A stretch of DNA of 64,000 bases from Octopus sinensis (taxonomy: Eukaryota): NCBI RefSeq assembly GCF_006345805.1, contig NC_043023.1, positions 21,204,001-21,268,000 of the forward strand, given 5' to 3'. Below are positions 1,089 through 63,195 of the stretch, one piece after another. The stretch's first letter is position 1, and each line of letters starts with the position of its first letter. A program made the translations under genes and the position numbers. The notes beneath the pieces are model-generated. The model worked only from the letters and a program-made list of their open reading frames with translations. It did not search any database and was not told the DNA's origin.

Positions 1089-1195
1089 ATTTCTTGTACG
1101 ATGTACCGTTTCATCTGCTGTTTAATGGTAAACTAACCTGATTAAATTAAATCAAGCCAATCTTCCATAGGCCCTCAGATTCTTCAGCAAGAAAT
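1089..1195 (-). ncRNA. Type-I hammerhead ribozyme, copy 1
   Basis: Minus strand: atttcttg-CTGAAGA-atctg...(long hairpin)...cagat-GAAAC-ggtacatc-GTA^caagaaat. 8-bp stem I, extended stem II, stem III ACG/CGT; predicted cleavage between 1097 and 1096. Confidence 0.88.
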
Positions 1196-1579: not shown

Positions 1580-1686
1580 ATTTCTTGTACGATGTACCGT
1601 TTCATCTGCTGTTTAATGGTAAACTAACCTGATTAAATTAAATCAAGCCAATCTTCCATAGGCCCTCAGATTCTTCAGCAAGAAAT
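1580..1686 (-). ncRNA. Type-I hammerhead ribozyme, copy 2
   Basis: Same sequence as copy 1, 491 bp away; predicted cleavage between 1588 and 1587. Confidence 0.88.
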
Positions 1687-2123: not shown

Positions 2124-2230
2124 ATTTCTTGCTGAAGAATCTGAGGGCCTATGGAAGATTGGCTTGATTTAATTTAATCAGGTTAGTTTACCATTAAACA
2201 GCAGATGAAACGGTACATCGTACAAGAAAT
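2124..2230 (+). ncRNA. Type-I hammerhead ribozyme, copy 3 (inverted arm)
   Basis: atttcttg 2124-2131, CTGAAGA 2132-2138, atctg/cagat stem II, GAAAC 2207-2211, GTA 2220-2222, caagaaat 2223-2230. Confidence 0.88.
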
Positions 2231-3018: not shown

Positions 3019-3330
3019 ATATATATTTATATACATATATATATATATATATATACACACATACATTTCTGTGTGTATGTATGTGGTATGTATGTACGTA
3101 CGTACGTATGTATGTATTATGTATGTATGTATGTACGTGTATGTGTGTATGTATGTACGTACGTAAATATGTACGTATGTATGTATGTATATATGTGTGT
3201 ATGTATATATGTATTATGCATGTATTACGTATGTATGTATGTATGTATGTATGTACGTATGTACGTCTGTATATACGTATGTATGTACGTATGTATGTAT
3301 GTATGTGTGTGTGTGTGCGTGCGTGTATAG
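3019..3330. repeat. (TA)n/(TATG)n/(TG)n microsatellite complex
   Basis: Direct inspection; source of the spurious YVCM/HTYI ORFs. Confidence 0.95.
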
Positions 3331-3759
3331 TGGCTTTGTGTGTATGTCTGTCGTTTACGTTTATCTCCATGTGACTTAGCGGTTCGCTATAAGAGGCCAA
3401 TAAAATCTACCAGACAGAAGTAAGAAATAACTTGTGTCAATTTCTTAGATTACAATTCTTCAATGCGGTGCCCCAGCGTGGCCGCAGTCTAGTAACTGAA
3501 AAATGTGAAAAAAACTACAAAATTCCTCAGTAACACCTTAAGCTAAGGGACGTAACTCTTGTACCTCCCACTGTGGCTTCAACTGCTAGAAATAGCAGCC
3601 AAAATGGTTTTAAGCCAGATCCCAATGCTGGATCGTCAAGAACCAAATGTAGAGCAGAGTTTCAATCCTGGGATCATCCTGATTCCAAAAAGGTAGAATA
3701 TGTCTATGTAGACTGAGGGACAGGGGTCACAGGCACATGGGAATTTCGCTTTTATTAAT

Positions 3760-4410
3760 GTGGCGAGCTGGCAGAAACGTTAGCACGCCGGGCGAAATGC
3801 TTAGCAGTATTTCGTCTGCCGTTACGTTCTGGGTTCAAATTCCGCCGAGGTCGACTTTGCCTTTCATCCTTTCGGGGCCCATTAAATAAGTACCAGTTAC
3901 GCACTGGGCTCGATATAATCGACTTAATATGTTTGTCTGTCCTTGCTTGTTCCCTCTGTGTTTAGCCCCTTGTGGGTACTAAAGAAATAGGTATTTCGTC
4001 TGCCGTTACGTTCTGAGTTCAAATTCCTTTCATCCTTTCAGGGTCGATAAATTAAGTACCAGTTACGCACTGGGCTCGATATAATCGACTTAATCCGCTT
4101 TTCTGTCCTTGTTTGTCCCGTCTGTGTTTAGCCTCTTGTGGGCAGTAAAGAAATAGGTATTTCGTCTGCCGTTACATTCTGGTTTCAAATTCCACCGATG
4201 TCGACTTTGCCTTTCATCCTTCCGAGGTCCATAAAATATGTACCAGTTATGCACTGGGGTCGATATAAACGACTTAATCCGTTTGTCTGTCCTTGTTTGT
4301 CTCCTCTGTGTTTAGCCCCTTGTGGGTAGTAAAGAAATAGGTATTTCGTCTGCCGTTACGTTCTGAGTTCAAATTCCGCCGAGGTCGACTTTGCCTTTCA
4401 TCCTTTCGGA
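3760..4410 (+). mobile_element. tRNA-derived SINE cluster with tandemly repeated body (Meta-domain-like core)
   Basis: Head GGCGAGCTGGCAGAAACGTTAGC...GGTTCAAATTCC and core GCCTTTCATCCTTTCGGGGTCGATAAA-AAGTACCAG repeated about four times. Confidence 0.8.
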
Positions 4411-4435
4411 TGTTATAATATAACACATTCACCGG

Positions 4436-4524
<89 letters not shown>

Positions 4525-4739
4525 AAGACGCAACGAAAATTTTAGGACAATAAAAATAAGAAAAAAGTGGGAATTTTACCGGTGAGTGTTTTACATAATA
4601 AGGCACAAAACGAAAAGGATTCTCTCCAGAAACAACAGAATTATTGAACTTAAGTATTACAACAACCAAAAAATAGAAATACATTTTCTTATGCGAATAT
4701 AGTGTTGCGTTGACAATTTCAATTCAAAGTTTTTATTCA

Positions 4740-5272
4740 TTCTGCAAATCTTGTTCGTTGATCCCATGCTAAAAACGTCCTAACAGACATTGGTTTGAGT
4801 TTTACCTGTAGGGGTGAAAATGATAAAATTGTCTTTGCTCCCCACTCTGGAACCCCAGCATATGTCTTTGTAAAAAAACAACCCTTCTCTAATTGCAAAG
4901 CAGTAACTTTGAAAGTCTGATCTTGGTACTTATCAATGGACATCGCAAGAGACTGACGTATTGGAAATTGAAGTCGTTTGAATTCGATGCGAATATTTGA
5001 AGGTATTAAAATTAAGTGAGGCATAAATATATCTTCACCTTTTCCAAAGACAAAAATTATTGTGGCTTCTATGATATTTCTCGTTAATTTCTTCACAACA
5101 ATTCTTGTACCACTGCACAGCTTCGGTTGGGAAAAAGGTCTGCAGAGGCATGATTGGAGCGCTCATTTTCAATGGAAGGCAACGAGGGGGAGCTCGTTGT
5201 GGATCCAGTGAGTTTAAGAACTCAACCAGATAATGGGCAAATCCCATGTCTTCAACAACAGAGTTTACAGAT
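4740..5272 (-). pseudogene. Helitron Rep/Hel PIF1-like helicase C-terminal fragment, disrupted
   Basis: Frameshifted peptides VEFLNSLDP..PP..LPLK..APIM and KKLTRNIIEATII..GKGEDIF..IPS..EFKRLQFPIRQSLAMSIDKYQDQT, typical of Helitron helicase motifs IV-V. Confidence 0.85.
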
Positions 5273-5525
5273 TTGTGGCGAACTGGCAGAATCGTTAGCA
5301 CGCCGGGCGAAATGCTTTGCCGTATTTCTTTTGTCGTTACGTTGTGAGTTCGGGGACGTAAACATACCAGCATCGGTTGTCAAGCGATGTTGGGGGGACA
5401 AACACAGGCACACACATATACAAATACGACAGGCTTCTTTCAGTTTCCGTCTGGTCTGGGGATCGAAACCGCGAGTCCGCTGCCCTAACCACTGGGCCAT
5501 TGCGTCTCCACACACACACACATAT

Positions 5526-5680
<155 letters not shown>

Positions 5681-6199
5681 CACATATCGTACGCTTCTTT
5701 CACTGACCATCTCTGAAACCCACAAACAGGTATTTGGTTATGGCAAAAAAAAACGGAAAAAAATCGCTCTAGGTGTCACGCAGTGGAACTGAACCTGAAA
5801 TCTCTATCACACAGTCACACCTATATCTATAAAGCTTGTCTATGTGTGTGTATAGACAGATAATTCGACTGAATGTTAAGGTGTCGGACGATGTCAGGCA
5901 GAGAGATTATGACGTCATAAGGAAAAATTGATTTAAAATGAGTGTTAGTCATTTTCACCTCTTTTCTTCTTCTCTCTCTCTCTCTCTCTCTCTCACCCCA
6001 AACCTTTCTTCGCTCAGTCTTTCTTTTCCGTAACCCTCCCCTTCTCACTCTATCTCGCTCTCGCTCACTTTCTCTCTTTCTTTCCCCCTCTCTCTCTTTC
6101 TCTTCGTTTATGTCTGTGCTTATGTAGGCTTGTGTTGTTGCCTGCTACTTATGTAGGACCTCAGAAATGTAGGAATATACACATTTCTCGTCTTTATGC

Positions 6200-7992: not shown

Positions 7993-8048
<56 letters not shown>

Positions 8049-8051
<3 letters not shown>

Positions 8052-9635
8052 AATTGTATCTTTGTGGTACCAGTGACGGTGGCACACAAGAAAACCACCC
8101 GAACGTGGCCGTAGCCAGTACCGCATCGACTGGCCTCCGTGCTGTGGGCACAACAAACACCATCCGATCGTGGCCGTTCGCCAGCCTCATCTTGCACCTG
8201 TGTCGGTGGCACATAAAAACACCATCCGAAGACCCGGCGACGTAGTCAGTCCACCTGTGCATACCTTCCTTCTTATGACACTTGTGAAGACCTGTTGAGG
8301 CAAGTGTGTGACACTTGTGAAGACCTGTTGAGGCAGAGGCAAGTGTGTGACACTTGTGAAGACCTGTTGAGGCAGAGGCAAGTGTGTGACACTTGTGAAG
8401 ACCTGTTGAGGCAAGTGAAAATCAAACCAAATCAAAATAGATGAACATCAATGGAATTTGTATCTTTGTGGTACCAGTATCGGTGGCACACAAGAAAACC
8501 ATCCGAACGTGGCTGTAGCCAGTACCGCATCGACTGGCCTCCGTGCTGTGGGCACATAACAAACGCCATCCGATCGTGGCCGTTCGCCAGCCTCATCTGG
8601 CACCTGTCCGAAGACCCGGCAAGACTAGTCAGGCCATAGCCCGTGGCCCCTTCCTGGGATGTAGTCAGTCCACCTGTGCATACCTTCCATCTTATGACAC
8701 TTGTGAAGTCCTGTTGAGGCAAGTGCTAATCTAATCAAATCAAATGACACTTGTGAAGACCTGTTGAGGCAAGTGATAATCATAATCATAATCAAATCAA
8801 ATCAAAACAAATCAAAATAGATGAACATCAATGGAATTTGTATCTTTGTGGTACCAATGCCGGTGGCACACAAGAAAACCATCCGAACGTGGTGGTAGCC
8901 AGTACCACATCGACTGGCCTCCGTGCTGTGGGCACGTAACAAACACCATCCGATCGTGGCCGTTCGCCAGCCTCATCTGGCACCTGTGTTGGTGGCACAT
9001 AAAAACACCATCCAAAGACCCGGCAAGACTAGTCAGGCCATAACCCGTGGCCCCTACCTGGGACGTAGTCAGTCCACCTGTGCATACCTTCCTTCTTATG
9101 ACACTTGTGAAGACCTGTTGAGGCAAGTGAAAATCAAACCAAATCAAAATAGATGAACATCAATGGAATTTGTATCTTTATGGTACCAGTGCCGGTGGCA
9201 CACAAGAAAACCATCCGAACGTGGCCGTAGCCAGTACCGCATCGACTGGCCTCCGTGCTGTGGGCACGTAACAAACACCATCCGATCGTGGCCGTTCGCC
9301 AGCCTCATCTGGCACTTGTGTCGGTGGCACATAAAAACACCATCCGAGCGTGGCCGTCTGCCAGCCTCGTCTGGCACCTGTGTCGGTGGCACATAAAAAC
9401 ACCATTTGAGCGTGGCCGTTCGCCAGCCTCGTCTGGCACCTGTGTCGGTGGCACATAAAATCACCCACTACACTCTCGGAGTGGTTGGCGTTAGGAAGGG
9501 CATCCAGCTGTAGAAACACTGCCAGATATGACTGGCCTGGTGCAGCCTTCGGGCTCCCCAGACTCCAGTTGAACCGTCCAACCCATGCTAGCATGGAAAG
9601 CGGACGTTAAATGATGATGATGATGATGATGATGA
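8049..9635 (+). repeat. Tandem array of RTE-LINE 3'-UTR-derived units ending in (GAT)n
   Basis: Units of ~330-400 bp restarting at ATGGAATTTGTATCTTTGTGGTACC (8048, 8451, 8831, 9163) with internal 37-bp and ~60-bp subrepeats. The terminal part resembles the RTE 3' end (GTCCAACCCATGCTAGCATGGAAA..CGTTAAATGATGAT). Confidence 0.8.
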
Positions 9636-49318: not shown

Positions 49319-49372
<54 letters not shown>

Positions 49373-49752
49373 ACCCAGCGAACTTCCACCATGGGTCATC
49401 ACAATTGCTTAAGGTTAAAATGAATTCCTCGCTCTTTCGGAAACATCAAATTCTGTATGACCGCTTTCCACCACTTTGATCTGTTTTTTGTATTGAATAC
49501 GTATCGCCACCGTGGGCCACTGCATCGAACACTTTGAACATATACTTCAAACTATATATCAACTATACATGAACTCTAAGATGTCTGACTCCGTTGTGTA
49601 TTATAAATGAATTTCTTGTGTTTGACGGTATGAGCTGTCTCTTTTTATATATAACTTTTTTTGATAAGGTTCATTTCAGGAACTGAAACATGTTATAATG
49701 TATATTAACATTAAAAATTGTATAATACAGCAGCATTTTCGACTTCATTTTT

Positions 49753-49789
<37 letters not shown>

Positions 49790-49965: not shown

Positions 49966-49996
<31 letters not shown>

Positions 49997-50504
49997 TTAA
50001 TAATATAAGGGTAAATATTAATTAATTTTAAAAAACCAACAATTATTCCCGGGTAGATTTCGGTATGTAAATATAACTATTATCGGTAGGACCTTTTAAA
50101 AAATTTATATATATATATAAAAGAGCAAGCAACAGGTTGCTTAGCCACATACCGTAAAAAATAGAAATAGCAGTCAAAGACCGTTTATTCTATCTTATAC
50201 AAATATAACTCCACTAGAAATAGCAGTCAAAGACCGTTATTTCTATTTTATACAAATATAACTCCACATACATGTATATGGAGTTATATGTGGAGTTATA
50301 TTTGTATAAAATAGAAATAAACGGTCTTGACTGCTATTTCTATTTTTTTCGGTATGTGGCTAAGCAACCTGTTACTTGCTCTTTTATATATATATATAAT
50401 TTTTTAAAAAAAGTTCCTACCGATAATAGTTATATTTACATACCGAATCTACCGGAATAAATGTTGTTTTTTTAAAATTAACAATTATTACCTTATATTA
50501 TTAA

Positions 50505-50535
<31 letters not shown>

Positions 50536-60832: not shown

Positions 60833-61613
60833 ATATTATGGTGAATGAAGAAATGGGGGGTTTCCTTGACAAGGCAGGCTTAGATGAACACACACACACA
60901 TATAAAACATAATATAATATTTTTTTCTGCCACCCAACGGTTCTCACTGCAGTAGCCACTGACAGCCGAACGATCAAACGCACACACGTACACAAAAAAT
61001 GTTTTCTACCCCTACGCCAGCACACACATATATAGAACAGTAGACACACACACGTCTCTAAGTAGATTTTTTCTCGCCCCTTATAAAACATCCATATTCC
61101 TTAAATAGTCAGAACTTTATTCTCGGTCACAAAGAACATCTACACACCCTCACCCACATGATTGACCGATGCCTGACCTGTTAAATTCTTCAGCCACCGG
61201 TTCTCAACATACTCTGATAAACAGTTTCGCCATGGGCTCTTAGGAGCCTAGTTCGATTTGTTGCTCGCAGCCTCTGTTCTGTTTTGTTTTTTCCAACGGA
61301 TTTCCTATTTTCTTCCTGAAGAGAAAGACACAATATGGTCCCATTATTCAATCGGATTTTGGTAAATTGTGCCTTTCGAAACACGTGTAGAATGAATTAA
61401 AACGATTTCTGTTCAATCTGCGTTCAGCTCCATTTCTTCAATTCACCAATAATATTTTAATATTTTAATTTCAATTATCCGCACCAACGCACGGTTGCAA
61501 CACCATATGGTTGTACCTCCAATCGTGCTGTTTACTGCTGTGATTTTTGCTACCAAGGTATCGGTTAAACTTTTGATTAATCTACTACAAGATTATTCAT
61601 CTTTCTATTTCAC

Positions 61614-61656
<43 letters not shown>

Positions 61657-61933
61657 ACAATTGGGGGTAAAATTAATTAATTAATCAATTTCACCAAGTG
61701 TTCAGTATGTAAAAGGACCATTTAAGGCGAATTCAAAATATTACATTATATAATTAGGGCTTAGTAAAATAAATTACTTTGCCACATACTGAACTAAGTA
61801 GAAATAGCAGCCAAAAAAATTTTCTTAGCATTTCTACTACTTAAAGAAAAATTTCTCTCAGATAATGTTTACTCTAGACAGCTCACGAAGGTTTGGGGGT
61901 AAATACAGAAAAATATCACAAGTACATAGATCG

Positions 61934-61996
61934 TTTGAGTACGTCAACGTTTCAAGATTAGCCAAATAAAATCAGCATTTCTATCGTCAGCTCAAA
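61934..61996 (-). ncRNA. Type-I hammerhead ribozyme
   Basis: Minus strand tttgag-CTGACGA-(stem II aga..gctga/ttggc..tct)-GAAAC-gttgac-GTA^ctcaaa. Confidence 0.82.
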
Positions 61997-62458
61997 ATTT
62001 CTTAATTTGGATTTGGAAACACTAAAAAGAAGGAACTTTACCTATCAGCGAACTACTCGCTTCAGATGAACCACTCCAACTAACAGTGTCAACAAATTCA
62101 AAATGCGCAGGCGTAAAATTCTGCACTCCCCATTCCACGCACGTGGTCTATCTAGCAAACATTATATTTTAACCGCGAGAACCGAGGTAGTATGACCGAG
62201 AGAAATGAATTATAATATCAACAATTGAGGGTAAAATTAATTAATTAATCAATTTCACCAAGTGTTAAGTATGTTCTCGCGGTTAAAATATAATGTTTGC
62301 TAGATAGACCACGTGGGTGGAATGGGGAGTGCAGAATTTTACGCCTGCGCATTTTGAATTTGTTGACACTGTTAGTTGGAGTGGTTCATCTGAAGCGAGT
62401 AGTTCGCTGATAGGTAAAGTTCCTTCTTTTTAGTGTTTCCAAATCCAAATTAAGAAAT

Positions 62459-62521
62459 TTTGAGCTGACGATAGAAATGCTGATTTTATTTGGCTAATCT
62501 TGAAACGTTGACGTACTCAAA
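62459..62521 (+). ncRNA. Type-I hammerhead ribozyme (inverted arm)
   Basis: tttgag 62459-62464, CTGACGA 62465-62471, GAAAC 62502-62506, GTA 62513-62515, ctcaaa 62516-62521. Confidence 0.82.
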
Positions 62522-62756
62522 CGATCTATGTACTTGTGATATTTTTCTGTATTTACCCCCAAACCTTCGTGAGCTGTCTAGAGTAAACATTATCTGAGAG
62601 AAATTTTTCTTTAAGTAGTAGAAATGCTAACAAAATTTTTTTTGGCTGCTATTTCTACTTAGTTCAGTATGTGGCAAAGTAATTTATTTTACTAAGCCCT
62701 AATTATATATATATATATACATACATATATATTATATATATATATATAATATATAT

Positions 62757-62797
<41 letters not shown>

Positions 62798-62800
<3 letters not shown>

Positions 62801-63195
62801 AGTGGCTGTTTGGTAAGTAGCCTGCTAACCAACCACTGGTCCCGGGTTCAGTCCCACTGCGTGGCATCTTTGGCAATTGTCTACTGCTATAGCCCCGGGC
62901 CGACCAATGCCTTGTGAGTGGATTTGGTAGACAGAAACTGAAAGAAGCCTGTCGTATATATGTATTATATATATGTGTGCGTATGTGTTTGTGTGTCTGT
63001 GTTTGTCCCCCTAGCATTGCTTGACAACAGATGCTGGTGTTTACGTCCCCGTCACTTAGCGGTTCGGCAAAAGAGACCGATAGAATAAGTACTGGGCTTA
63101 CAAAGAATAAGTCCCGGGGTCGATTTGCTCGACTAAAGGCGGTGCTCCAGCATGGCCGCAGTCAAATGACTGAAACAAGTAAAAGAGTAAAAGAG
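62798..63195 (+). mobile_element. tRNA-derived SINE
   Basis: Family consensus as at 30931 and 50847. Confidence 0.88.

Follow-up and report, generated by a model that had tools for sequence, protein, structure and literature searches.

Positions 61655-62709 of the 64-kb window (the whole stretch of Octopus sinensis DNA that was analysed) are occupied by an element built from a 564-bp, AT-rich unit (34% G+C), which we number p1 to p564, and bounded by (TA)n on both sides (Table 1). Self-comparison of the window bears out the layout claimed by the sequence-only reading, a 564-bp monomer with a direct restart and an inverted copy of about 430 bp in (TA)n; the inverted arm measures 437 bp. The direct repeat pairs 61651-61710 with 62215-62274 at a spacing of 564 bp (97% match), and the inverted pairing falls into two blocks, 61813-62182 with 62273-62642 (370 nt, 99%) and 61747-61823 with 62633-62709 (77 nt, 99%). 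The 3' end of the inverted arm runs into (TA)n at the TA-rich p84-95 site of the unit. There is no ORF of 40 aa or longer inside the element, nor an ORF encoding the reverse transcriptase (RT) and GIY-YIG endonuclease of Penelope-like elements (PLEs), and no PLE protein match was obtained across the whole window. We refer to the 564-bp unit as fam2, to the 491-bp unit of a further element at 859 as fam1, and to a family of about 576-586 bp, whose helix III is minimal, as the older family.

Table 1. Coordinates of the element and of its hammerhead motifs in the window; p numbers are positions in the 564-bp unit.
Feature	Position	Strand	Basis or remark
Full unit, 564 bp (p1-p564)	61655-62218	hammerhead-sense RNA is minus strand	self-comparison, copy search
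Direct restart (p1-56), 5'-truncated second unit of left arm	62219-62274	-	2 mismatches to unit 1
Inverted arm, 437 bp, p528 down to p93	62273-62709	+ (hammerhead sense)	99% to left arm
Head-to-head junction of arms, 2-nt overlap GT	62273-62274		alignment coordinates and sequence
Left (TA)n flank, 39-nt TA run	~61616-61654		adjoins p1 end of unit (3' end, hammerhead sense)
Right (TA)n flank	~62704-62797		sequence read and TA-run measurement
Type-I hammerhead, left arm	61934-61996	-	motif scan; predicted cut between 61940 and 61939
Type-I hammerhead, right arm	62459-62521	+	motif scan; predicted cut after A62515
Right-arm helix I	62459-62464 with 62516-62521	+	
Right-arm core CUGACGA	62465-62471	+	
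Right-arm helix II	62472-62501	+	
Right-arm GAAA	62502-62505	+	
Right-arm helix III, ACG-UUGA-CGU	62505-62514	+	
Minority T at hammerhead position 10.1	62472	+	family majority A; mirror site 61983
Conserved 17-nt box TTTGGCTGCTATTTCTA	62641-62657	+; mirror 61815-61799 on -	common to fam1, fam2 and the older minimal-hammerhead family

Each arm carries one hammerhead motif, which reads TTTGAG, CTGACGA, 30 nt, GAAA, CGTTGACG and TA, followed after the predicted cut by CTCAAA. The type-I core, CUGANGA ... GAAA ... UH with helix I open, is found on both strands. The claim of a type-I hammerhead on both strands therefore stands as far as the motif goes, but it needs qualifying for this copy, where CUGACGA is followed by T (62472), so that 10.1/11.1, at the base of helix II, is a U.U mismatch. 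The first 100 rows listed of genome matches to the core pattern include 83 of the family type; AAGA follows the core in 76 of these, with an A-U pair at 10.1/11.1, three carry T at 10.1 and four a small deletion. Assembled contigs of three sequencing runs, their kind unconfirmed, likewise have A rather than T at 10.1. The claim would have been at risk had other copies lacked the core. Instead, the pattern matched 460 times in the genome against 7 in the reversed control, and because of this excess and the high copy number of the unit the motif lies beyond chance. Rfam called no hammerhead, either at gathering score over the whole window or at E values up to 10 over 61500-62900. This negative weighs little, because a canonical-looking PLE hammerhead at another locus of the genome (L054) also went uncalled in the same kind of scan. 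Rfam matches to plant and animal miRNA families at 62098-62357 were rejected as artefacts of the long inverted repeat, and those in the flanks as artefacts of the TA repeats.

Folding predictions separate the monomer from the dimer. The monomeric hammerhead fold was no better than shuffled sequence (z = -0.24), and for a 67-nt piece it reached -9.9 kcal/mol against -10.2 for the minimum-energy fold. The predicted dimer cofold is a double hammerhead at -31.4 kcal/mol, compared with twice -10.2 for two monomers. The helix III of fam2, ACGUUGACGU, self-pairs over 10 positions, two G.U pairs included. Folded as a circle, the sense monomer reached -138.6 kcal/mol (z = -3.6), with none of 100 shuffles as low; the antisense monomer gave z = -2.0. 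At the level of the family the hammerhead is real, as a putative ribozyme. With a single ribozyme in each arm and its U.U mismatch at 10.1/11.1, the window copy is probably a dead end.

Far from being single-copy, the unit returned 1760 first-look candidates in the genome, 40 of which were scored and showed 91-100% identity (95-100% for full-length units). Identity was 98.5% between loci versus 99.0% within a locus; the family is young, its insertions being about 1.5% diverged. The window element is thus a single member of a young non-coding family present in many copies. Among the 26 separate insertions of a top-scoring sample, 3' ends in hammerhead sense numbered 44; 43 of them fell at p1-3 or p84-95, and a TA run of at least 9 nt lay beside 42. 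The inner ends of this top-scoring sample were spread over p28-p563, none of them at the cleavage site p285/286, and their junctions showed short overlaps or filler. An inverted arm was present in 18 of the 26. Among 19 insertions sampled by hammerhead pattern only, the 3' ends were canonical and lay in (TA)n in 18, and an inverted arm was present in 7. Of the two features proposed as the rule for genomic copies, (TA)n at the 3' ends held up, but the inverted arm proved frequent rather than general. Arms extend up to 3.2 units in fam2, and fam1 forms arrays of at least 7 adjacent units; tandem units each carry their own hammerhead motif. Since four of eight free 5' ends abut unique DNA, not TA, the (TA)n at 3' ends could in part be a tail made during insertion rather than purely target. 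Assembled contigs of four runs, whose kind ("RNA?") is guessed or unknown, gave fragmentary cover of the element; some span the predicted cut and some contain tandem joints. The insertions display 5' truncation, partial tandems, an inverted 5'-truncated copy and a microsatellite target, which define a Penelope-type insertion in the available text of Craig et al. (2021, PMC8557442); the same text agrees with the earlier statement that a partial tandem plus an inverted copy is characteristic of PLEs.

An element with the same direct, restart and inverted layout had been placed at 860 and is present from 859. Its 491-bp unit is repeated 2.4 times and followed by an inverted arm at 2039-2354, and its own hammerhead motif has an 8-bp helix I. 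The 2-nt microhomology claimed for both inversion junctions was confirmed, as AG at 2039-2040 in fam1 and GT at 62273-62274 in fam2. In the older relatives, helix III is 1 bp long with a CGCG tetraloop; the pattern for such minimal-type relatives gave 51 genome matches versus 0 in the reversed control. Reading them in the fam2 register was rejected, as helix I is then unpaired; a helix I of 6 bp is regained once helix III is taken as 1 bp closed by the CGCG loop. Pattern matches at three loci (L100/L101 and L081) are without helix I, are probably not ribozymes and were excluded from the alignments. At 30 nt, the helix II of the unit family is long, and its 3x3 internal loop is conserved. Across 29 sequences, 85% of helix II cells were paired versus 17-54% in slid controls, and 38 cells had changed on both sides versus 0-10. 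In an alignment of 29 minimal relatives, pairing in helices I and II reached 93% versus 19-51% when slid, and 7 pairs showed double-sided changes. Helix III offers too few and too invariant positions for a covariation test.

The three families share the hammerhead helix II layout and a 17-nt box, which lies about 90-125 nt 3' of the predicted cut (about 125 nt in fam2), and otherwise have little sequence in common. The sequence-only reading was right to call fam1 and fam2 distinct families of the same architecture, but they are not unrelated. In all three families the 3' ends are fixed in TA-rich sites adjoining (TA)n and the 5' ends vary; partial tandems occur, and inverted arms joined head to head are frequent. 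This common end behaviour supports the claim that a single Penelope-type, (TA)n-directed template-switch process serves several families.

Candidate helpers are plentiful in the genome. A GIY-YIG search gave 5029 candidates; 147 of the 150 that were scored proved to match. A C-terminal GIY-YIG domain is present in open frames of 538-883 aa, with RVT_1 upstream in 7 of 8 scanned. An intact PLE ORF of 781 aa is present. Of 20 sampled GIY-YIG loci, 19 were matched by PLE protein (RT upstream in 11, the endonuclease region alone in 8), and all 19 show or are compatible with the C-terminal-endonuclease layout. The abundant candidate helpers are of the canonical PLE type, which has its endonuclease at the C-terminus, and are not Naiads. 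The co-occurrence of PLEs that goes with animal non-LTR retrozymes is thus found here in the form of intact RT and GIY-YIG frames. Moreover, all seven copies of the main PLE family end (3') in (TA)n, and the five truncated copies (L055, L056, L059, L060 and L061) also have a TA-rich microsatellite at or within a few bases of their 5' side, pure (TA)n in three.

The Penelope- or Naiad-type helper RT with shared termini that had been anticipated did not emerge from the 12 full PLE and 20 GIY-YIG loci sampled, which are a small part of the PLE diversity of the genome. Neither unit had nucleotide similarity to the 12 full PLE loci by blastn, and a search of all 32 loci for the box gave only a few box-like matches, in unrelated sequence. 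A unit-like stretch turned up in just one PLE-containing locus of the 32 (L046), where it belongs to a fam2 insertion that lies beside the PLE and is distinct from it. Conversely, tblastn with PLE proteins against about 118 retrozyme or hammerhead-pattern loci placed PLE coding pieces in four distinct neighbourhoods, and in the three inspected these were separate insertions or more than 1 kb away. The L054 PLE hammerhead has G-C at 10.1/11.1 and a short helix II, and therefore belongs to a different lineage from that of the unit. Because no sequence is common to the units and the sampled PLEs, it is only the shared architecture and target that point to a PLE helper.

Taken together, these observations make it very probable that the element is an insertion of an animal "non-LTR retrozyme", likely copied into (TA)n by target-primed reverse transcription using PLE enzymes. 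Because the outer ends are fixed at two TA-rich sites abutting (TA)n and the inner ends vary, the insertion scar is, by analogy, the PLE-like one of target-primed reverse transcription with 5' truncation. Mobilization would begin with hammerhead-strand transcription of arrays of at least two units. The ribozymes would then cut after the A of GUAC, probably paired via their quasi-palindromic helix III, and a host ligase would close the monomers into circles. A PLE endonuclease would nick (TA)n, and the TA-ended DNA would anneal to a UA-rich stretch of the RNA, from which the RT could copy a circle or multimer into more than one unit. A second priming event, on the other target strand, would yield the inverted arm, with the two cDNAs joining head to head by microhomology. 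More tentatively, and with some doubt on our part, the template could be specifically a ribozyme-made circle. In this version a (TA)n DNA end, annealed to one or the other of the two internal UA-rich stretches and never at the ribozyme cut, would prime the PLE RT, an enzyme related to telomerase. Multi-unit arms would arise as the RT travelled round the circle, and the inverted arm from a second priming on the other strand. A 17-nt sequence, the box TTTGGCTGYTATTTCTA, common to three otherwise diverged families and just upstream of the ancestral start site, might then serve as the in-trans template signal of the RT.

Three other accounts need weighing against the retrozyme reading. It is conceivable, but unlikely, that PLE-type retrotransposition is real and the hammerhead an inactive relic, multimer transcripts being copied without cleavage or circles. 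Such a relic would fit the weak helix II, the 3-bp helix III and the unfavoured monomer fold; uncleaved multimers would also leave no inner junction at the cleavage site, and Naiad PLEs thrive without hammerheads (PMC8557442, available text). However, the core is kept, compensatory changes preserve helices I and II across families with little other sequence in common, most family-type rows (76 of 83 among the first 100 listed) read AAGA with A-U at 10.1/11.1, and the dimer fold is strongly favoured. We give still less credence to the unit being the terminal repeat (pLTR) of an unsampled autonomous PLE family, with the loci as heavily 5'-truncated PLE insertions. According to the available text of PMC8557442, pLTRs are indeed where PLE hammerheads are located, and most PLE insertions are truncated at the 5' end; Xenopus retrozymes match PLE termini in the accessible part of a recent preprint (bioRxiv 10.64898/2026.07.22.740005), and just 32 of the 5029 GIY-YIG candidate loci entered our sample. 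Against this, arms pass repeatedly through whole units (3.2 here, at least 7 in fam1) and never enter an ORF, the sampled PLEs are without the unit, the L046 stretch being a separate fam2 insertion, and PLE coding near the roughly 118 loci was confined to four neighbourhoods, with the three inspected separate or more than 1 kb off.

Least probable of all, to the point of being hardly credible, is a repeat propagated at the DNA level, whether a satellite or foldback in TA microsatellites or a TA-targeting DNA transposon related to Helitrons, in which the hammerhead would be irrelevant. Palindromic junctions such as p346 to p346, the TA association and the tandem arrays could be read that way, and Helitrons insert at AT dinucleotides. 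In each arm, however, one side is fixed and the other variable, the fixed side always being the hammerhead-strand 3' end; terminal inverted repeats of fixed length are absent from the insertions, the RNA structure co-varies, and the ends of this genome's autonomous PLEs behave in the same way.

The kind of element seen here, the animal non-LTR retrozyme, is already described, and the octopus family is a new example of it; our search of the cephalopod and octopus hammerhead or retrozyme literature found no description of fam1, fam2 or the older family. How PLE tandem and inverted insertions are made is still presented as an open question in the available text of PMC8557442. With hundreds of young insertions and several related ribozyme families, the ends can be read base by base, revealing two alternative UA-rich start sites, arms that exceed one unit and a ribozyme cut site free of junctions. 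These natural data bear on both PLE insertion and animal retrozyme mobilization, and make (TA)n microhomology priming, a circular or multimeric template and twin priming testable. The conserved box is a candidate recognition signal.

The octopus insertions resemble the products of LINE-1 twin priming, in which two arms stand inverted head to head, their 3' ends face outward, and the inner junction varies and shows microhomology; they differ in that priming would fall on internal UA-rich stretches of a multimer or circle, not on poly(A), and in the class of enzyme. For PLE insertions, Craig et al. (PMC8557442, available text) report partial tandems with an inverted 5'-truncated copy and a bias to (TA)n, the latter reported for Naiads, which are without hammerheads, and suggested for Neptune. 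The unit family has the same scars and (TA)n association, and the genome's own PLEs end in (TA)n. Unlike PLEs, however, the unit has no RT or GIY-YIG ORF and no sequence in common with the PLEs sampled; unlike the Naiad case, the (TA)n bias here occurs in hammerhead-bearing repeats, alongside sampled PLEs with a C-terminal endonuclease.

As to the ribozyme, the available text of Cervera and de la Pena (2020, PMC7229834) describes minimal or dimeric hammerheads in PLE pLTRs, newt satellite 2 and axolotl, and the octopus motif resembles these in being type-I with a very short, self-complementary helix III. It departs from them at 10.1/11.1, which is A-U or mismatched, not G-C; axolotl offers precedents both for U.U at this position and for dimeric action. 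The same text treats animal type-I hammerhead repeats as non-autonomous retrozymes with units of 170-400 nt. The octopus unit is like them non-coding, AT-rich and equipped with a type-I hammerhead, occurs in tandem copies in a genome with PLEs, and has an RNA predicted to be highly structured. It differs in its length of 564 nt, in its long 30-nt helix II with a 3x3 loop, and in its cleavage and circles, which are predicted from the DNA sequence alone. Moreover, most octopus loci are not long arrays but short PLE-style (TA)n insertions of about 1-3 units, some with an inverted arm and some lacking it.

The sequence-only reading had described a 564-bp monomer with a direct restart and an inverted copy, set in (TA)n, and the repeats, BLAST and the sequence itself bear this out (see table). 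The unit boundaries follow from a direct repeat (61651-61710 versus 62215-62274, 97% at a spacing of 564), and when the locus it comes from is searched with the unit by BLAST, the matches are +1-564, +1-56 and -93-528. Restart and inverted arm overlap by GT at 62273-62274, and (TA)n flanks the insertion on left and right. The 2-nt microhomology claimed for the inversion junctions is thus seen in both elements, as GT here and as AG in that of the 491-bp family. The hammerhead motif reported on both strands of 61655-62705 is also present, in the form TTTGAG CTGACGA [30 nt] GAAA CGTTGACG TA/CTCAAA. The element is without any ORF of at least 40 aa. Directly right of its (TA)n flank lies a tRNA-like or SINE-like sequence (GGAGTGGCTGTTTGGTAAGTAGCCTGCT...GGTTCAGTCCCACTGCGTGGC), and sequence resembling this stretch also flanks a minimal-family copy at another genomic locus (L128).

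Features of the superfamily and neighboring sequences in the window
Feature	Position (strand)	Basis or detail
564-bp family, unit (p1-p564)	61655-62218	direct repeat at 564 spacing
564-bp family, restart (56 bp)	62219-62274	direct repeat
564-bp family, inverted copy	62273-62709	inverted repeats of 370 nt and 77 nt, collinear, 99% each
564-bp family, hammerhead motifs	62459-62521 (+); 61996-61934 (-)	motif scan, whole window
491-bp family, element	859-2354	unit x 2.4; inverted arm from 2039
491-bp family, hammerhead (HHR) motifs	1195..1089 (-); 1686..1580 (-); 2124..2230 (+)	motif scan
Older family, third superfamily insertion	about 49994-50510	head-to-head 3' fragments, without hammerhead
17-nt box in the third insertion	50178 (-); 50231 (-); 50326 (+)	
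17-nt box elsewhere	3603 (-); 58609 (-)	one exact, one with one mismatch
Main PLE family, 3' end, 5'-truncated	49370-49784	about 415 bp, 92% to L053, ends in (TA)n
tRNA-like or SINE-like sequence	62799-62935	

Both loci recur with their flanks. That of the 564-bp family has a 3.5-kb counterpart of 98.6% identity on an unplaced contig (G000:C6346:24510-28072), and that of the 491-bp family an inverted one of 99.97% identity on the contig from which the window comes, at a distance of about 100 kb (G000:C27:21305610-21309100). The latter also appears on unplaced contigs C11577, C11362, C11170 and C10767, two of which were compared and are 99.3-99.97% identical; the other two have 100%-identical 491-bp units in the same layout. 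These duplicated parts of the window represent either a recent large duplication or assembly redundancy.

Far from being single-copy, the 564-bp unit yielded 1760 first-look candidates in the 2.72-Gb genome (13,516 contigs), and the 40 that were scored gave 120 matches of 91-100% identity, the full-length units among them being 95-100% identical. From the 30 top-scoring loci we obtained 26 distinct insertions: L002 was dropped as the 98.6% duplicate, on an unplaced contig, of the entire 3.5-kb locus of the window, and L014, L025 and L030 because of overlap with other loci. With the unit numbered in this way, the hammerhead is on its minus strand, and ends are given here in hammerhead sense. 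Of the 44 outer 3' ends in these insertions, 43 fall at p1-3 or p84-95, the sole exception being a 53-nt piece in L006, and a TA run of at least 9 nt adjoins 42 of the 44 (exceptions, L005-left and L006-left). Both types of site are TA-rich within the unit itself (...TTATAATAT/CAACAATTG and CATTATATAATTAGGG). The remaining ends are scattered over p28-p563, with none at the predicted cut, p285/286; eight are free 5' ends, four beside TA and four beside unique DNA. An inverted arm is present in 18 of the 26, and 3' ends face outward in inverted cases. Among 17 inversion junctions, 11 have an overlap of 1-16 nt (median about 3) and six a filler or gap of 1-133 nt. A second sample took the hammerhead pattern as its sole criterion: the first 30 places on contig C1, of which four were other families or chance matches and the rest collapsed to 19 insertions. 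Canonical 3' ends in (TA)n were found in 18 of these 19, and inverted arms in 7 of 19 (8 of 18 when two pieces with 206 bp between them are counted as a single event). In both samples (TA)n almost always adjoins the outer 3' ends; an inverted arm is frequent without being the rule. Arms of the 564-bp family can be longer than a single unit and reach 3.2 units. The combination of fixed 3' ends with variable 5' ends and multi-unit arms is a mark of target-primed reverse transcription of multimeric or circular RNA. In the 564-bp, 491-bp and older families alike, it is on the 3' side of the hammerhead strand that the ends are fixed, which ties the ribozyme strand to the transposition intermediate.

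An Rfam search called no hammerhead in the window element, and the same kind of scan also missed a canonical-looking hammerhead of a Penelope-like element (PLE) at locus L054, so other tests were needed. The pattern CTGANGA-N22-40-GAAACG-N4-CGTA has 460 matches in the genome versus seven when read backwards. Among the first 100 in the list, the 564-bp type accounts for 83; the core is followed by AAGA, an A-U pair at 10.1/11.1, in 76 of these 83, by a small deletion in four and by T in three, a variant also found in both arms of the window copy. Given one predicted ribozyme per arm and this U.U variant, the window copy could not release unit-length RNA on its own. Diverged relatives occur among the other listed matches, and a second pattern made for them has 51 genome matches versus none for its control. 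The register of the 564-bp family was rejected for these relatives, as it leaves helix I unpaired; they read as GAAA-CGCG-UY/CGUAAA, with a helix I of 6 bp and a helix III of 1 bp whose loop is the palindrome CGCG; newt and PLE hammerheads of this "minimal" form are known (PMC7229834). In an alignment of 29 distinct sequences from the 564-bp family and its relatives, helix II consists of 3-4 pairs and a further five, separated by a 3x3 internal loop that stays constant; it is 85% paired, versus 17-54% with the partner slid, and 38 cells are changed on both sides, versus 0-10 in the slid controls. For helices I and II of 29 minimal-type sequences the paired share is 93% versus 19-51%, with both-sided changes in seven pairs, the pairing of helix I being tested by its free 5' strand only, since the search pattern fixes the first four bases of the 3' strand. 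Helix I differs by family: TTTGAG with CTCAAA in the 564-bp family, GTTGAG with CTCGAT in a close relative, TTTACG with CGTAAA and GTTRCG with CGTAAC in minimal types, and ATTTCTTG with CAAGAAAT in the 491-bp family. The predicted ribozyme of the 564-bp family is structurally conserved. Three matches at L101 (G000:C3:85209000-85218999; 2521, 5804 and 8778), in a repeat of about 3-kb period with CTGAGGA...GAAACGGTTGCGTA, have no helix I, are probably not ribozymes and were excluded from the alignments.

Folded alone, the 81-nt hammerhead piece does no better than shuffles, and in a 67-nt piece the hammerhead fold (-9.9 kcal/mol) is narrowly beaten by a misfold (-10.2). Two copies are predicted to cofold into a domain-swapped double hammerhead at -31.4 kcal/mol, versus -20.4 for two monomers, with a 10-bp intermolecular helix III formed by ACGUUGACGU with itself, including two G.U pairs. 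This predicted cofold agrees with an earlier remark on a dimeric form and fits the axolotl precedent, in which monomers are weak and dimers active (PMC7229834). The unit between two predicted cuts, folded as a circle, reaches -138.6 kcal/mol (z = -3.6); its antisense has z = -2.0.

The 491-bp family (1155 first-look candidates genome-wide) has the same layout as the 564-bp family, with 3' ends at either p1 or p108, arrays in which at least seven units adjoin, and inverted arrays. Its motif has 8 bp in helix I, five closing pairs in helix II and four pairs in helix III. The older family, with a unit of about 576-586 bp and the minimal-type hammerhead, has two parts in common with the 564-bp family, the hammerhead and a 3' region that runs up to the p84-type end; its 3' end is fixed in ...CTCTTTTATTTATATAC beside (TA)n, its 5' ends vary, and tandem and inverted cases occur. 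The two divergent families are not unrelated: the 491-bp family has no BLAST-level similarity to the other two, but it shares with them a 17-nt box, TTTGGCTGYTATTTCTA, which lies downstream of the cut by about 90-125 nt, and its p108-type end (...CCTTGATTGTTGAT) is similar to the p1 end of the 564-bp family (...CAATTGTTGAT). The three form a superfamily. In the third superfamily insertion of the window, the two fragments have a (TG)n/(TA)n tract on one side and a (TA)n/(CA)n tract on the other. The two isolated boxes in the window (TTTGGCTGCTATTTCTA) are followed by GCAG in surroundings unrelated to the three families. Other box-like matches, two of which have 1-2 mismatches, are followed by GCA in parts of L052 and L055 that are not PLE; the box may be part of further repeat families.

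Intact PLEs with the same target are present in the genome. A search for GIY-YIG gave 5029 candidates, of which 150 were scored and 147 matched. PLE open frames of 538-883 aa have GIY-YIG at the C-terminal end, with RVT_1 upstream in seven of eight scanned. Of the 20 best GIY-YIG loci, 19 are matched by the main PLE protein (35-99% identity) and one is not. A Penelope/Naiad-type helper had been envisaged; these 19 loci show, or are consistent with, the canonical PLE arrangement with a C-terminal endonuclease and not Naiads, as the RT part lies upstream of it in 11 and the endonuclease region alone is matched in eight. Each of the seven copies of the main family has ...CATTTTTTACAAATATATA at its end and (TA)n beyond it. 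In five truncated copies (L055, L056, L059, L060 and L061) a TA-rich microsatellite, pure (TA)n in three, also lies at or within a few bases of the 5' side, which argues that (TA)n is a true target. PLE coding sequence was found nowhere in the window. Where PLE pieces near loci of the hammerhead families were inspected, they proved to be separate insertions; one shares the (TA)n tract and another lies at a distance of over 1 kb. At L133 (G000:C10:49666000-49675000; 3029-5964), a single (TA)n tract contains a 5'-truncated PLE and, 25 bp from it, an older head-to-head pair that resembles the 564-bp family (80-86% identical to its unit); both kinds of insertion gather in TA microsatellites. A second PLE family at L054, with a 775-aa frame, is flanked by canonical minimal hammerheads at 8015-8059 (+) and 8421-8339 (-), which have G10.1-C11.1, a 2-bp helix III and palindromic loops TCGA and ATAT and belong to another lineage than those of the superfamily. 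A helper with common termini, as had been envisaged, did not emerge, since units and sampled PLEs have no sequence, box or hammerhead lineage in common; we infer a PLE helper from common scars and target.

The proposal of a single (TA)n-targeting template-switch process gains qualified support from the same end behavior in all three families. Set beside the observed anatomy, end polarity, copy number, conserved ribozyme structure, lack of an ORF and intact PLEs, such a process might run as follows. Multi-unit arrays would be transcribed, the predicted ribozymes would cleave as pairs, and host ligase would close the units into circles. A PLE endonuclease would nick (TA)n, and the TA-ended DNA would anneal to one of two UA-rich RNA stretches, from which reverse transcription could run round the circle or along a multimer. 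The other strand would prime a second time, and the two cDNAs would be joined through microhomology.

These features have precedents. PLE insertions with a partial tandem and an inverted, 5'-truncated copy are described in PMC8557442, which reports a (TA)n bias in Naiads, says that one had been suggested for Neptune, and places Naiads in cephalopods including Octopus spp. The element of the 564-bp family belongs to the already known animal non-LTR retrozymes, non-autonomous hammerhead repeats whose units are given in PMC7229834 as 170-400 nt with type-I hammerheads, circular RNAs and, in amphibians, dimeric action. A 2026 preprint argues from vertebrates that retrozymes derive from PLE termini (10.64898/2026.07.22.740005). 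In the literature searched we found no published description of the three families. What the present analysis adds to these known systems is many young insertions read at base level, a pair of internal start sites and a common box.
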